Source: a virus
Strand: one strand, 5' to 3'
Length of the DNA: 12,124 nt
Virus genome (UHGV): UHGV-0069955
The notes under the pieces are model-generated. The model worked only from the letters and a program-made list of their open reading frames with translations, searched no databases and was not told the origin of the DNA. The position numbers and the translations under genes are program-made. Position 1 is the first letter of the stretch, and every line of letters starts with the position of its first letter. Below are positions 1,686 through 5,251 of the stretch, in pieces.

Positions 1686-2165
1686 TTAAATTGCGTGAAT
1701 AGCGTGACGAGGGAAGGGGAGAGTTACTGGTTCCTCGTCTGGGTAGATAGGTTTGTTATGTTTGTGCCACTCGACATGGCATGACTTGCAGAGCCACATC
1801 ACATCGGTTGGTTTGCTGTAGTCGCAGTGGTGCGCCTGTGGTTTACATTCTGATCCGCAGCACTCACATTGTGGTGGTCGGATTAGCTTACCGTCGCGCA
1901 AAAAATTACCCACGATGATGTGGGCTTTTCTTTTCCATGGGTTGCTCTGAATGAACCGCTTTTTGGCTGCGTTACACCGTCCTCTGCCGCGTTCCGATGA
2001 TTGATATTCTCTCCTTGCTGATACTCGATGTGGCAATCCCGCGCGCTCTTTGTCGTATTCAGCCAGGCAAGCCCGGCAAGCGGCAGTTAATCCATCTCTG
2101 GATGCTCTTCTGATTTGAAAGTCCCTTTCTTCCTTCTGTTGATGGCATCTTGAGCAGATTTTCAT
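1686..2165 (-). CDS. HNH-family endonuclease with N-terminal Cys-rich (zinc-ribbon-like) region, 159 aa
   Basis: C-terminal ...AHHCDYSKPTDVMWLCKSCHVEWHKH fits the HNH motif (HH...D...LC..CH..H). N-terminal CSRCH...CRAC Cys pairs. AGGAG Shine-Dalgarno overlaps the SSB stop codon. Confidence 0.6.
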   Translation of the reverse strand: MKICSRCHQQKEERDFQIRRASRDGLTAACRACLAEYDKERAGLPHRVSARREYQSSERGRGRCNAAKKRFIQSNPWKRKAHIIVGNFLRDGKLIRPPQCECCGSECKPQAHHCDYSKPTDVMWLCKSCHVEWHKHNKPIYPDEEPVTLPFPRHAIHAI

Positions 2166-2174
2166 ATTCAGCTC

Positions 2175-2648
2175 CTAGAACGGAATATCCGAATCGTCGA
2201 AGTTCATAGGTGGTTCGCTGTGATTTCCATGCTGCTGAGGTTGCTGTCTTTGTTGCTGACCGTTATTTCGCTGAGGTGAAGACTGTTCATTGCCTCCTTG
2301 CTTGCCACCAAGCATTTGCATGGTTCCACCAACGCCCACGATGACTTCGGTAGTGAACCTATCCTGTCCGCTTTGATCCTGCCATTTTCTTGTCCGTAAT
2401 TTGCCTTCAAGATAAACCTCAGAGCCTTTTCGCAGATATTCGCTGGCAATTTCTGCCAGTTTCCCGCTCATTACCACACGGTGCCACTCCGTCTGCTCCT
2501 TTTGCTCTCCAGTTTGCTTATCACGCCATTGTTCTGACGTAGCAACTGTAAGGTTTGCAAATGCCGTTCCTGATGGTGAGTATCGAACTTCCGGGTCTTG
2601 TCCTACCCGACCAAGGATAATCACCTTATTTATCCCGCGAGAACTCAT
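2175..2648 (-). CDS. ssb: Single-stranded DNA-binding protein (SSB), 157 aa from ATG at 2648
   Basis: [27 protein letters not shown]...TEWHRVV...Gly/Gln-rich linker...C-terminal acidic tail DDSDIPF is the classic bacterial/phage SSB OB-fold and tail. The ATG overlaps the upstream HNH stop (ATGA). ORF track's 2657 start is an upstream GTG. Confidence 0.9.
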
Positions 2649-3112
2649 TTGCTCCACCTCTTGCCAGTTTTTATGTTGCTTATAATTGATTGAGATACAC
2701 CCATGTCTTTTGCTATCTTGTACTGACTCTCTTTTTCAGAGAGTCTTTTCCTAATTTCTATAACCTGCCACTCTGTTAATTTTGCACCATGATGAGCATG
2801 ACCTTTCTTGGCTCCACGATGCCTTCCTTTTGCTATCTTGTCGTCCATGTTTTCTTGCGCGCTACCTAAAAAGAGATGTTCAGGATTAACGCAGCATGGG
2901 TTATCGCATTTGTGGCAAACCATCTTCCCAGATGGAATGGGGGAGTGATAAAGCTCAAAAGCAACACGATGAGAAAGCATTGTTACGCCAAAGGCTACAA
3001 ATTTTGTGTATCCTCCTTTGTTTTTTGAATAGGTAGACTCCCAGCAACCTGTTGTTTCATTAACTTTGTAGCTGGACTCGAATCTTTTAATAATTCCGTC
3101 CAAGTGAGACAT
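2645..3112 (-). CDS. HNH endonuclease (HNH_3-type) with C-terminal helix-turn-helix, homing-endonuclease-like, 155 aa
   Basis: [17 protein letters not shown]...[12 protein letters not shown]...[26 protein letters not shown] is the HNH_3 signature. C-terminal [42 protein letters not shown] looks like an HTH. ATG directly follows the SSAP stop (TAAATG). Confidence 0.75.
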
Positions 3113-3820
3113 TTATGCCGCCTGTTTTAGTTCGTTAACTCTGATGTTCATTACCTGAACGCATTTAGCCTGCGCCTCCTCGTTGCCAGCCATTAATTGC
3201 CAGTCACGCTGATAACGCTCGATGAGTTTTTTCTTGTCAGTTTCTGTTGACGCATAATCGCTGAAGTCTTTCAGGATTTGTTCGCAGTCAACCGATGGAG
3301 ATTTCTGGTTGGTATTTTCTGGTGATGGTTTGTTATCTGATGCTGGGATTGCCCATCCAGGCAGCGATGGAGGGAGCCAGTAAAATCCTGTTCCATCCTT
3401 CAGTTTTGCCCTGTGCCACCCCTGCTTTTTATCGAGAGATGTTTGTGCAAAACCTTCCTCAAGGTTATACAGATACCGACCGATTCCCCACTGAACGGCA
3501 GCACGCTTCATTGCACCTGAACGACCACCTTTGACGGCTTCTACCTGCGTGTTTTCAGCAGCATCCCATTTGGTTACCCATTCGGAATCAATCTTGATTG
3601 ATATGCCGCATTCAACTCCGCCGTTGTTGGGAATATCGCGGTATTCATTGCGCCATCCTGCTTTGCCGCAAACATCGTCCAGGCGTTTCATGATTGCCCG
3701 GTTCGTGACATAAGCCAGCACCATAGCCCACACCTTGCCATCGCGTGTTTTACCGCTTTGCTGTATTCGCCATTCGATATCTTCAGGGCTGAATGGCTCA
3801 TCGAATTTGTTCAAATCCAT
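3113..3820 (-). CDS. Rad52-like single-strand annealing protein (phage recombinase, Sak-like), 235 aa
   Basis: ...GISIKIDSEWVTKWDAAENTQVEAVKGGRSGAMKRAAVQWGIGRYLYNLEEGF carries the KRAAV.(F/W)GIGRYLY hallmark I associate with phage Rad52/22-family SSAPs. Sits where lambda has bet. GAGGTG Shine-Dalgarno. Confidence 0.7.
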   Translation of the reverse strand: MDLNKFDEPFSPEDIEWRIQQSGKTRDGKVWAMVLAYVTNRAIMKRLDDVCGKAGWRNEYRDIPNNGGVECGISIKIDSEWVTKWDAAENTQVEAVKGGRSGAMKRAAVQWGIGRYLYNLEEGFAQTSLDKKQGWHRAKLKDGTGFYWLPPSLPGWAIPASDNKPSPENTNQKSPSVDCEQILKDFSDYASTETDKKKLIERYQRDWQLMAGNEEAQAKCVQVMNIRVNELKQAA

Positions 3821-3828
3821 AATTCACC

Positions 3829-3999
3829 TCAGAATGGACACGGCCCAAGAAAATAACGCTGATTTAATACTTCGACTCGGGACAAATTAAGGCATACCCG
3901 CATTCCTTCGCGGTCGCCATTATGGCGATACCAGAGAGCTTTCTGCGTGTACATGCGTCTCTGTAACTTGCTCTCCTTCACTGTGGTTGCAAGTGACAT
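3829..3999 (-). CDS. Small hypothetical protein, 56 aa (MSLATTVKESKLQRRMYTQKALWYRHNGDREGMRVCLNLSRVEVLNQRYFLGPCPF)
   Basis: Not in the ORF track (<60 aa). ATG at 3999 with an AGGAG Shine-Dalgarno 7 nt upstream. Overlaps the next small ORF by 80 nt in another frame, so only one of the two may be real. Confidence 0.35.
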   Translation of the reverse strand: MSLATTVKESKLQRRMYTQKALWYRHNGDREGMRVCLNLSRVEVLNQRYFLGPCPF

Positions 4000-4078
4000 G
4001 AATATCTCCTTCGTTACCGATTAATTCTTTCATCTGACGAATGAATTCTTCGTCTGACCAGTTATCTGTAAAACTCAT
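3920..4078 (-). CDS. Small hypothetical protein, 52 aa (MSFTDNWSDEEFIRQMKELIGNEGDIHVTCNHSEGEQVTETHVHAESSLVSP)
   Basis: Not in the ORF track. ATG at 4078 overlaps the stop of the Kil-like ORF (ATGA). Weak AGGAA Shine-Dalgarno. Acidic. Confidence 0.3.
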   Translation of the reverse strand: MSFTDNWSDEEFIRQMKELIGNEGDIHVTCNHSEGEQVTETHVHAESSLVSP

Positions 4079-4227
4079 TTCCTGCGATACCACGGAAGGT
4101 TGATAGCTGATTTCATCGCTTTATTTGCTTCAAGCCACATTTTGGAATCACCAATAAATCTGGCTATTACTGCTTTGTTTTGTGCTGCACGAAGCATCTG
4201 GTGATTGATGGCTATTTCATTGCGCAT
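4075..4227 (-). CDS. Kil-like small protein (candidate host cell-division inhibitor), 50 aa
   Basis: MRNEIAINHQMLRAAQNKAVIARFIGDSKMWLEANKAMKSAINLPWYRRK. The ...ARFIGDSKMW... core resembles lambda Kil (...ATFIGDEKMF...) as I recall it. GGAGG Shine-Dalgarno 5 nt upstream. Position (between CIII-like and the recombinase) matches lambda kil. Confidence 0.45.
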   Translation of the reverse strand: MRNEIAINHQMLRAAQNKAVIARFIGDSKMWLEANKAMKSAINLPWYRRK

Positions 4228-4346
4228 AACGCCTCCAGTTGTTTCTTTGCTGCTCTGATTAATTGTTTAACTCGGCGTGATAATTCAGATTCGTGCGGGT
4301 AGAAAGCGGACATGACGCCGCTACCCGCGAGCTGAAAGTGCATCAT
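4212..4346 (-). CDS. CIII-like small protein (candidate FtsH-inhibitor family), 44 aa
   Basis: MMHFQLAGSGVMSAFYPHESELSRRVKQLIRAAKKQLEALCAMK. Resembles lambda CIII (..AIAG.PV.....SESLLERITRKLRDGWKRL) in the AG...ESxL...R..K.L region. AAGGAG Shine-Dalgarno 6 nt upstream. The upstream part of the 79-aa track ORF is rejected because it spans the terminator at 4412-4436. Confidence 0.45.
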   Translation of the reverse strand: MMHFQLAGSGVMSAFYPHESELSRRVKQLIRAAKKQLEALCAMK

Positions 4347-4411
4347 GGGTAACTCCTTATATTTGATTGCATAACGAAAACGCCTCGAGTGAAGCGTTAT
4401 TGGTATGCATA

Positions 4412-4436
4412 TAAAAAAGCCCTCACACTGGAGGGC
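4412..4436 (-). terminator. Rho-independent terminator on the leftward transcript (tL-like), upstream of the cIII/kil genes
   Basis: Minus strand reads GCCCTC-cagtgt-GAGGGC followed by TTTTTTAT (plus strand gccctc 4419-4424, gagggc 4431-4436, A-tract 4412-4418). An N-antiterminated pL transcript would read through it. Confidence 0.6.
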
Positions 4437-4570: not shown

Positions 4571-5194
4571 CTATGCGGACTCGGAAGGAAGTCCAATCAT
4601 CTTATTCAAATCTTCTACCCGTAAAGCAGGAAGTGCTGTACTTGCTTTGTCTGCTTCTTTTGGTAGCAATTCTTTGCTTTCAGGCCAAACTTCAATAAGT
4701 CGCTTAACTGTTGTGACTGAGTTCAAAGCAGCCCATACATTTGATTCGATATCCTTTTTCTTGGCTTCAAGTTTTTGTTGCAATGCGCAGATTTCATCAA
4801 ACCTTTTTGTTATTTCGTGTTCTGCATCAAACATGCATTTATCTTTGGTTGGAGTAGGGAGCAATATATCTTCGCCGTTGCCGTCTTTCCCATATGAATG
4901 CCATCCAACCCTTCTGCCAGATACAGTCAGATAAATTGAAGTAGAACGAACATCGTATGAGTAAAATGAACATCCCATCTTTTCAAGTTCTTCACTTATA
5001 GCTACTAACCTGGATGATAACTGATCCACTTCCTCAGTTTTCTTTTTACCGCCAAACGCAATAACTCTGGCGTCAAGTGCAAGCTGGTTCTTTAACTTTG
5101 TTACTTCTTCAAGTTCAGTGAAAACCCCAGACTTAATTAAAGCGTTACGAGCGATTTTCTCTTTCATTCTCGTAGTTAAGCGGATTGATGACAT
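4571..5194 (-). CDS. Hypothetical low-GC accessory (moron) protein, 207 aa from ATG at 5194
   Basis: Strong GAGAGGAA Shine-Dalgarno 5 nt upstream of the ATG at 5194 (track's 5209 start is TTG). Visibly AT-rich relative to the lambda-like flanks. Translation MSSIRLTTRMKEKIARNALIKSG... is Lys/Glu-rich with no motif I recognise. Confidence 0.6.
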   Translation of the reverse strand: MSSIRLTTRMKEKIARNALIKSGVFTELEEVTKLKNQLALDARVIAFGGKKKTEEVDQLSSRLVAISEELEKMGCSFYSYDVRSTSIYLTVSGRRVGWHSYGKDGNGEDILLPTPTKDKCMFDAEHEITKRFDEICALQQKLEAKKKDIESNVWAALNSVTTVKRLIEVWPESKELLPKEADKASTALPALRVEDLNKMIGLPSESA

Positions 5195-5251
5195 ATTAAT
5201 TCCTCTCAAATAAGTGGTTTGCTGCGAAAGTAAATACGCTTAAGTTACCTG

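Follow-up and report, generated by a model that had tools for sequence, protein, structure and literature searches.

The cIII-kil region of an HK97/HK022-type lambdoid prophage and two conserved minigenes between kil and the recombinase gene

A 518-nt block in the viral genome UHGV-0069955, of which we analyzed a stretch of 12,124 nucleotides (nt; this entire stretch is referred to as the window), raises the question of what the smallest open reading frames (ORFs) of a lambdoid early operon encode, and whether all of them encode anything at all. Four very small, overlapping ORFs are crowded into this block. An interpretation made from the DNA alone (the sequence-only reading) had likened two of them to Kil and CIII and had considered the other two, here designated ORF3 and ORF4, as a possible replacement of the lambda gam gene, as candidate host-modulating toxins, or as artefacts. 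In the explanation that we regard as the best overall, and to which we assign a probability of about 0.6, the block consists of four translationally linked genes, with ORF3 and ORF4 forming the upstream edge of the recombination module of the phage. The identities of the genes, their reality, their arrangement and their linkage to the recombinase gene are documented in the following sections.

Four overlapping small genes in an early-left operon

The block is part of the pL (early-left) operon of a common HK97/HK022-type lambdoid prophage of Escherichia coli. Its genes, the Shine-Dalgarno sites as read from the DNA, and the gene that follows are arranged in the window as listed here (aa, amino acids).

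4346..4212, minus strand: cIII, 44 aa, HK022 class; predicted inhibitor of the FtsH protease that would stabilize CII
4227..4075, minus strand: kil, 50 aa; predicted host cell-division inhibitor
4078..3920, minus strand: ORF3, 52 aa, acidic
3999..3829, minus strand: ORF4, 56 aa, basic; assigned by similarity to the HkaM family
4358..4353, minus strand: Shine-Dalgarno site AAGGAG of cIII, 6-nt spacer to the ATG
4236..4232, minus strand: Shine-Dalgarno site GGAGG of kil, 4-nt spacer to the ATG
4011..4006, minus strand: Shine-Dalgarno site AAGGAG of ORF4, 6-nt spacer to the ATG, within ORF3 codons 23-25 (N-E-G)
3825..3831, minus strand: ORF4 stop codon TGA (3831..3829) together with the Shine-Dalgarno site GAGGTG of the recombinase gene, which it overlaps
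3820..3113, minus strand: Rad52/22-family single-strand annealing protein, 235 aa (Pfam PF04098, E = 5e-26)

All of the anatomy described in the sequence-only reading was recovered in our inspection of the DNA: the four small ORFs, their starts and ribosome-binding sites, the 16-nt overlap of cIII and kil, and the 80-nt overlap of ORF3 and ORF4, the frame of the latter being +1 relative to that of the former. The stop codon of kil and the ATG of ORF3 overlap as ATGA, and the ATG of the gene for the Rad52-like protein lies 8 nt past the ORF4 stop codon. In phages that lack kil, the start of ORF3 still forms an ATGA overlap with whichever gene precedes it, a finding that supports position 4078 as the true start of ORF3. 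The four genes are linked in the N-antiterminated early-left transcript by these overlapping or adjacent translation signals; translation of ORF3 would start by coupling to the kil stop codon, and that of ORF4 at its own strong ribosome-binding site inside ORF3.

An 801-nt query around the four-ORF block is 98-99% identical to the phages ECP1, HK106 and HK97 and 94-95% identical to mEp235, mEpX2 and HK022. At least part of this query was matched in 2274 of 5426 complete E. coli genomes (about 40%), and at least 80% of it is present in 243 of these 2274. The corresponding block is annotated as cIII, kil, gp42 and gp42.1 in HK97, and as CIII, Kil and two overlapping hypothetical proteins (mEp235_034 and mEp235_033) in mEp235; the updated HK022 record lists both minigenes separately (HK022_42 and HK022_42.1), and annotations of the minigenes exist in Sf6 as well. 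The feature is already known, all of its parts being found in well-known phages, mostly with an annotation, and the locus is an ordinary one. The automatic NCBI annotation of RefSeq E. coli genomes labels kil as 'host cell division inhibitory peptide Kil' and the cIII ORF as 'hypothetical protein', and it omits both ORF3 and ORF4 from E. coli chromosomes. The modest value of the locus lies in these two minigenes, which are under selection yet dropped by automated annotation of E. coli. cIII and kil have textbook functions, and there is nothing new to be learned from the present copies because they are identical to characterized alleles.

The assignments to Kil and CIII made in the sequence-only reading proved correct. 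Both proteins are 100% identical to those of HK022 and HK97 and score above the Pfam gathering thresholds, and the comparison with lambda, P22 and HK022 that had been suggested as a check yielded identities of 47, 32 and 100% for Kil and of 27, 36 and 100% for CIII. The CIII protein reaches 104.7 bits against Pfam PF08134 (cut-off 25; E = 2e-30) and covers the whole 37-position profile. Its conserved helix residues are in register with those of lambda CIII and P22 C3: E19, S20, L22, R24, L29, K34 and L40 are invariant in an alignment of the lambda, P22, HK022 and HK97 proteins. The equivalent of the central amphipathic helix region, residues 14-37 of lambda CIII (PMC1838920), is contained in this alignment; the C-terminal extension of lambda CIII is absent from the protein encoded in the window. 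Kobiler et al. (PMC1838920) defined an 'HK022 class' of CIII, a protein that HK022, HK97 and H-19B share in identical form and from which the window protein shows no detectable difference; its gene likewise occupies the same position in the pL operon and overlaps kil. Lambda CIII is both a competitive inhibitor and a substrate of FtsH (PMC1838920). Judged from this work and from its membership in the HK022 class, the cIII product of the window would be an amphipathic helical peptide that competitively inhibits FtsH and thereby protects CII during the lysis-lysogeny decision.

For Kil, the match to Pfam PF06301 (Lambda_Kil) amounts to 72.6 bits (cut-off 27.6; E = 1.7e-20) over the full profile (positions 1-31), and that to phrog_2055 has an E-value of 1.2e-35. 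The helix-turn-helix core with its conserved FIGD turn is present, the window segment IARFIGDSKMW being aligned to IATFIGDEKMF of lambda Kil. Two differences from the lambda protein were noted: the N-terminus is longer, and the C-terminal RSK/RSSK motif that nearly all homologues of lambda Kil are reported to possess (PMC11762379) was not found in the alignment, the window protein ending in ...LPWYRRK. This latter difference is one of the HK022/HK97-type subgroup and does not disqualify the protein from membership in the Pfam family. Lambda Kil blocks the assembly of the FtsZ ring in a ZipA-dependent manner (PMC3961180) and acts through its helix-turn-helix core (PMC11762379). By analogy, the helix-turn-helix peptide encoded in the window would block FtsZ ring assembly and cause filamentation of induced cells.

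Coding capacity of ORF3 and ORF4

Are the two unassigned ORFs genes? Relatives were gathered by protein searches and locus scans, and codon-position counts as well as Nei-Gojobori ratios of nonsynonymous to synonymous change (pN/pS) were calculated for 72 unique 250-nt segments carrying both ORFs. In each of these 72 DNA variants both ORFs are intact and the split arrangement is kept. In the region covered by ORF3 only (codons 2-26), changes at the first, second and third positions of the ORF3 frame number 8, 10 and 28 (pN/pS 0.42), while the other two frames yield pN/pS values of 1.29-1.38. The corresponding counts in the ORF4 frame are 18, 8 and 40 in the region covered by ORF4 only (pN/pS 0.14) and 22, 10 and 37 in the 80-nt overlap (pN/pS 0.30). 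Read in the ORF3 frame, the same overlap, that is the ORF3 tail, gives a pN/pS of 1.74. Because third-position changes prevail in the proposed frames but not in the control frames, the first approximately 26 codons of ORF3 and all of ORF4 are under purifying selection, and both ORFs encode proteins. This finding speaks against the suspicion that they are artefacts, as do their matches to phrog_2123 (ORF3; E = 6.6e-42) and phrog_1723 (ORF4; E = 9.4e-36).

Within the overlap, only the ORF4 frame is constrained, and the ORF3 tail is a passenger of ORF4. The conserved part of ORF3 comprises its first approximately 26 residues, MSFTDNWSDEEFIRQMKELIGNEGD, and this N-terminus is kept as a protein in divergent phages (e.g., MSIADTWSEDAFVRLMKDLIGSEGG, MSIRDMSDEQFYHLMKDLIGSEGG and MSIADTWTDDAFIRLMKDLISEDKE). 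The functional part of ORF3 would consequently be its acidic N-terminal segment of approximately 26 residues, and the tail would be an unconstrained read-through into ORF4. We considered selection to keep the tail open, but when ORF4 was resampled synonymously, the length of the tail was compatible with chance (P = 0.18-0.40 per lineage). Early stop codons in the ORF3 frame are frequent in loci without ORF3 and never occur in loci with it; this contrast is only suggestive of tail selection because the loci are related to each other.

The substitution patterns also bear on the idea that ORF3, ORF4 or both are chance ORFs whose conservation operates at the DNA level and stems from a mosaic junction or from the translation signals of the recombinase gene. 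The omission of both ORFs by the NCBI pipeline would fit this idea, as would the nearly invariant 3' end of ORF4, which holds the ribosome-binding site of the recombinase gene, and a tail of ORF3 whose length agrees with chance once the ORF4 protein sequence is given. It does not account for the dominance of third-position changes in the proposed frames and their absence from the control frames, for an ORF4 of exactly 56 codons in relatives down to 46% identity that have accumulated many synonymous changes, or for an ORF3 N-terminus that is kept as a protein in divergent phages. The idea is already largely refuted by the substitution patterns, and we give it next to no credence.

A second objection to two separate genes comes from phage HK97. 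Its gp42.1 (83 aa) consists of the ORF3 N-terminus joined to the ORF4 C-terminus, with gp42 starting at an in-frame internal start codon. The HK97 DNA is the same as that of the window (about 98.7% identical), whereas the window and the other relatives examined carry two overlapping genes in different frames. In the HK97 record (AF069529; L001 in our collection), the frames are fused through two extra single bases, C and G, which are 6 nt apart and located at approximately 24,880-24,900 of the record, equivalent to approximately 3945-3955 of the window. All other records that fully cover a 401-nt query span 399 nt, and the extra bases are thus unique to the HK97 record. The fusion is either a private mutation of HK97 or an old sequencing error.

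One might nevertheless argue from the fused 83-aa ORF of HK97, and from the rare 82-aa fusion proteins found in public data, that ORF3 and ORF4 constitute one gene of 82-83 aa that is broken by a frameshift in the window or is expressed there through programmed +1 frameshifting. Against this stand not only the restriction of the two extra bases to the HK97 record and the split arrangement in 72 of 72 unique variants, but also the features of ORF4 itself: it possesses its own AAGGAG-N6-ATG start and a conserved N-terminus, and it occurs as a 56-aa gene in phages that are devoid of ORF3. Furthermore, the ORF3 tail is unconstrained, and we saw neither a slippery sequence nor a stop-stimulated shift site when reading the overlap. 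The 82-aa fusions are joined at differing positions and are represented by one to four sequences each, as mutations or assembly errors would produce. Two genes is much the better reading; a single gene appears very improbable.

ORF4, the HkaM family and the recombinase gene

The neighborhood of ORF4 bears on its placement. Each of the 140 loci reaching past ORF4 has a recombinase gene next in line (140/140), and this gene starts no more than 16 nt ahead of, and no more than 17 nt behind, the final base of the ORF4 stop codon. These recombinases are of ERF type A (the P22/HK97-type Erf; 59 loci), Rad52/22 (51), ERF type B (16), AAA_24 Sak4-like (11) and the HK620-type Sak4 (3). In HK620 itself, the gene for HkaM is likewise found immediately upstream of the recombinase gene. 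On the other side of ORF4, kil, the type of cIII and ORF3 are variable between loci or absent. A recombinase gene that always comes next, together with a variable kil, cIII and ORF3 upstream, indicates that ORF4 belongs with the recombination module and not with kil and cIII; whether the module is of the Erf, Rad52-like or Sak4-like kind, no other gene accompanies the recombinase gene as constantly.

Recombinases of the Rad52-like, the two ERF and the AAA_24 Sak4-like types have a homologous C-terminal domain of approximately 55 aa in common, with the pattern …ILxDFxxYA…W…L.G…Q.K…R..ELKQAA. It is found at 3113-3290 of the window, where it appears to resemble closely the C-terminus of P22 Erf, at 27254-27420 of locus L004, and in loci L094, L095 and L098. 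As a candidate for the common partner of ORF4, this domain was weakened, since the HK620-type Sak4 is devoid of it and yet follows an ORF4 homologue.

With which proteins, then, is ORF4 to be grouped? Its equivalents are HK022_42, mEp235_033, gp29 (gene 29) of Sf6 and gp42 of HK97. The 35 unique protein variants that we recovered, which reach down to 46% identity and nearly all measure exactly 56 aa, have an invariant C-terminus NQRYFLGxxPF; in distant members and in HkaM, only the terminal PF of this motif is retained. All 35 unique variants, 10 distant representatives of 56-60 aa and HkaM end exactly in PF. When 1.8 billion representative proteins were searched exhaustively with the family profile, only approximately 16 clusters (at 50% identity) were obtained, all of 56-60 aa; the family is a narrow one from enterobacterial lambdoid phages. 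HK620 HkaM (NP_112046) has 62 aa, and with its length and its Pro-Phe end ORF4 falls within the HkaM family, whose members measure 56-62 aa. In a profile comparison with hhalign, ORF4 matched HkaM with a probability of 96.8% (E = 3e-10; approximately 33% identity over the aligned columns). HkaM is in addition 50% identical to the database protein P0127, which matches the ORF4 profile at E = 1.9e-7. By these sequence comparisons, ORF4 and HK620 HkaM clearly belong to one family. The two genes are alike in their place directly upstream of the recombinase gene, their similar size and the C-terminal PF of their products; they differ in that hkaM directly follows kil with no ORF3 in between, and that it precedes a gene for the Sak4 ATPase and not for a Rad52-like protein. 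According to Hutinet et al. (PMC5928155), hkaM was first named arf because of its position but lacks homology to the Arf protein of P22, its function being unknown.

In Yersinia-type loci (L133, L135, L140 and L142), a conserved ORF of 35 aa (MDIVKALQLLAVD…LFYRG.K) is present directly upstream of the ORF4 homologue. It occupies the position of kil, and its end overlaps the ORF4 homologue as ATGA.

In the AlphaFold2 model, ORF4 forms a confidently predicted two-helix hairpin (pLDDT 91; helices at residues 7-27 and 30-49), with a less confident tail, FLGPCPF, at the C-terminal end ...YFLGPCPF. The ORF4 product would hence be a basic two-helix hairpin with a flexible C-terminal ...PF tail, and it would bind its partners through the hairpin and the strictly conserved, free C-terminal Pro-Phe. 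By analogy with P22 Arf, which is found in the same slot, ORF3 and ORF4 are best regarded as putative accessory factors of phage recombination or replication, and they would probably act by binding of a partner protein rather than by catalysis. If ORF4 were indeed a recombination accessory factor, it could be relevant to the function of the module in vivo and to better recombineering systems.

The comparison with P22 concerns ORF3 in particular, whose equivalents are HK022_42.1, mEp235_034 and the N-terminal part of HK97 gp42.1. The gene order is c3-kil-arf-erf in P22 and cIII-kil-ORF3-ORF4 followed by the Rad52-like gene in the window; ORF3 thus shares with arf the slot that lies between kil and the recombinase gene. 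Both proteins are small and acidic, and both contain the motif [W/F]SDEEFI in their N-terminal portion. ORF3 matches phrog_2445 ('Arf') weakly (E = 0.037), and an ORF3 homologue bears the name 'accessory recombination function protein' in one public record. A difference is that the stop codon of arf overlaps the start of erf, while ORF3 runs into ORF4. Arf itself is a non-essential helper of recombination (PMC12315714). ORF3 is therefore Arf-like in position and motif, and not a demonstrated member of the Arf family. The notion that P22 Arf represents a fusion of an ORF3-like N-terminus to an ORF4-like C-terminus was discarded, the comparison of ORF4 with Arf having an hhalign probability of 0.1%.

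Parts of ORF3 are fused to unrelated sequences in five database proteins (P0052, P0062, P0041, P0042 and P0068). In one such fusion, the first 34 residues of a lambda-type N protein are joined to ORF3 at NWSDEE. These fusions probably mark deletions in decaying prophages.

Several points weigh against a role of ORF3 and ORF4 in the recombination module. Part of the linkage to the recombinase gene could stem from translational coupling, or from a mosaic boundary common to both genes, and not from a function that they share. In HK620, sak4 and ssb alone provide the full oligonucleotide-recombineering activity of the whole module (PMC5928155), so that HkaM is dispensable in this type of assay. 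Searches with the ORF4 fold against the PDB and BFVD recovered just generic helical hairpins, none at E ≤ 0.001, and a search of PDB sequences with the ORF4 profile gave nothing below E = 0.25. No paper assigning a function other than 'unknown' to HK97 gp42, Sf6 gp29 or HkaM turned up. The AlphaFold2 model of a natural fusion of the ORF3 N-terminus to ORF4 (P0001), used as a proxy for a complex, gave no support for packing of the two against each other but carries little information, since the ORF3 helix (residues 9-21) has a pLDDT of just approximately 62 and the pTM fell to 0.60. As to the resemblance of ORF3 to Arf, hhalign returned a probability of only 21% (E = 1e-3) over just 19 columns around the [W/F]SDEEFI motif, and neither the window ORF3 nor four divergent homologues matched Pfam PF17585 (Phage_Arf) at E ≤ 10, a profile against which P22 Arf itself scores 121 bits.

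The dispensability of HkaM for oligonucleotide recombineering (PMC5928155) might be taken to favor a different view, namely that ORF3 and ORF4 are Kil-like toxins or modulators directed at the host and lie next to the recombination genes through an accident of operon order. Both indeed follow kil directly and belong to the same chain of coupled translation, and a two-helix hairpin is the general architecture also predicted for Kil (PMC11762379). Neither ORF, however, has detectable similarity to Kil. The profiles of ORF4 and Kil show none (hhalign probability 0.6%), which led us to reject ORF4 as a Kil paralogue, and ORF4 remains next to the recombinase gene, of which there are five types, even where kil is missing from the locus, with kil and cIII, unlike ORF4, being variable or absent upstream. 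We consequently consider the toxin proposal of the sequence-only reading to be unlikely, given this lack of similarity to Kil and the linkage of ORF4 to the recombinase gene in all 140 loci.

A replacement of lambda gam by the two ORFs is likewise not supported. No Pfam family, Gam included, matches ORF3 or ORF4 at E ≤ 1, and with Gam they share just the map position after kil and no sequence similarity. The anti-RecBCD role is filled in this module by Abc2 of the P22 type:

1376-1672: abc2, P22-type anti-RecBCD gene (Pfam PF11043, E = 4e-61)

Returning to accessory factors of recombination, one specific version of this proposal starts from the free C-terminal Pro-Phe of the ORF4/HkaM family. 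The tails of the family (GPCPF, GECPF, GEQPF, GEPPF, NDLPF and SELPF) resemble the tips of SSB proteins of bacteria and phages (…DDIPF; …DYPPF in HK620). The tip docks SSB to its partners, which are enzymes of recombination and repair, and that of HK620 is required to stimulate Sak4 (PMC5928155). ORF4 might accordingly mimic the SSB tip or serve as an adaptor for the tip-binding pocket. The hairpin would then compete with, or redirect, host SSB partners (e.g., ExoI, RecQ, RecO or PriA) or the phage annealing protein, and ORF3, as well as P22 Arf, would be an acidic partner or an alternative in the same slot. On this view, the association of ORF4 with five recombinase families that are unrelated, or related only distantly, would be explained. 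Most of the ORF4-bearing modules also encode an SSB ending in IPF, and the ORF4 tail did not visibly covary with the SSB tip. We put forward this version as a speculative one, whose chances are rather slim.

Surroundings of the block

Upstream of cIII, a consensus scan detected two terminator-like hairpins.

4436..4419, minus strand: terminator-like hairpin GCCCTC..GAGGGC followed by T6, upstream of cIII
4398..4379, minus strand: second terminator-like hairpin upstream of cIII

At this site, the HK97 record has an annotated putative terminator. The hairpins are presumably read through under N antitermination. A scan of the whole window against Rfam found no RNA family. Between N and these terminators lies a gene for a 212-aa protein (4571-5209, minus strand) that matches the Pfam domain Nmad5 ('nucleotide modification associated domain 5'; E = 4e-72); it occupies the slot of ral, gp17 or gp45 in other phages.

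Downstream of kil, the recombination module of the window is ordered ORF3, ORF4, Rad52-like annealing protein, HNH insert, SSB, a further insert and Abc2. The HNH insert is a gene for a 155-aa HNH_3 endonuclease (2645-3112, minus strand; Pfam E = 1.1e-13) situated between the Rad52-like gene and ssb. In mEp235 and in E. coli ET245, these two genes are adjacent with no HNH_3 gene between them, and the latter therefore looks like the insertion of a homing endonuclease into the recombination module. The further insert (1686-2165, minus strand) is a Cys/His-rich ORF of 159 aa (…CKSCHVEWHKHN…) that has no Pfam match and stands where mEp235 has a DnaQ-like exonuclease. It ends in PVTLPFPRHAIHAI, and the same peptide follows the IPF tip at the end of the SSB ORF of mEp235; its presence at both ends suggests an insertion that re-used the old end of the gene.

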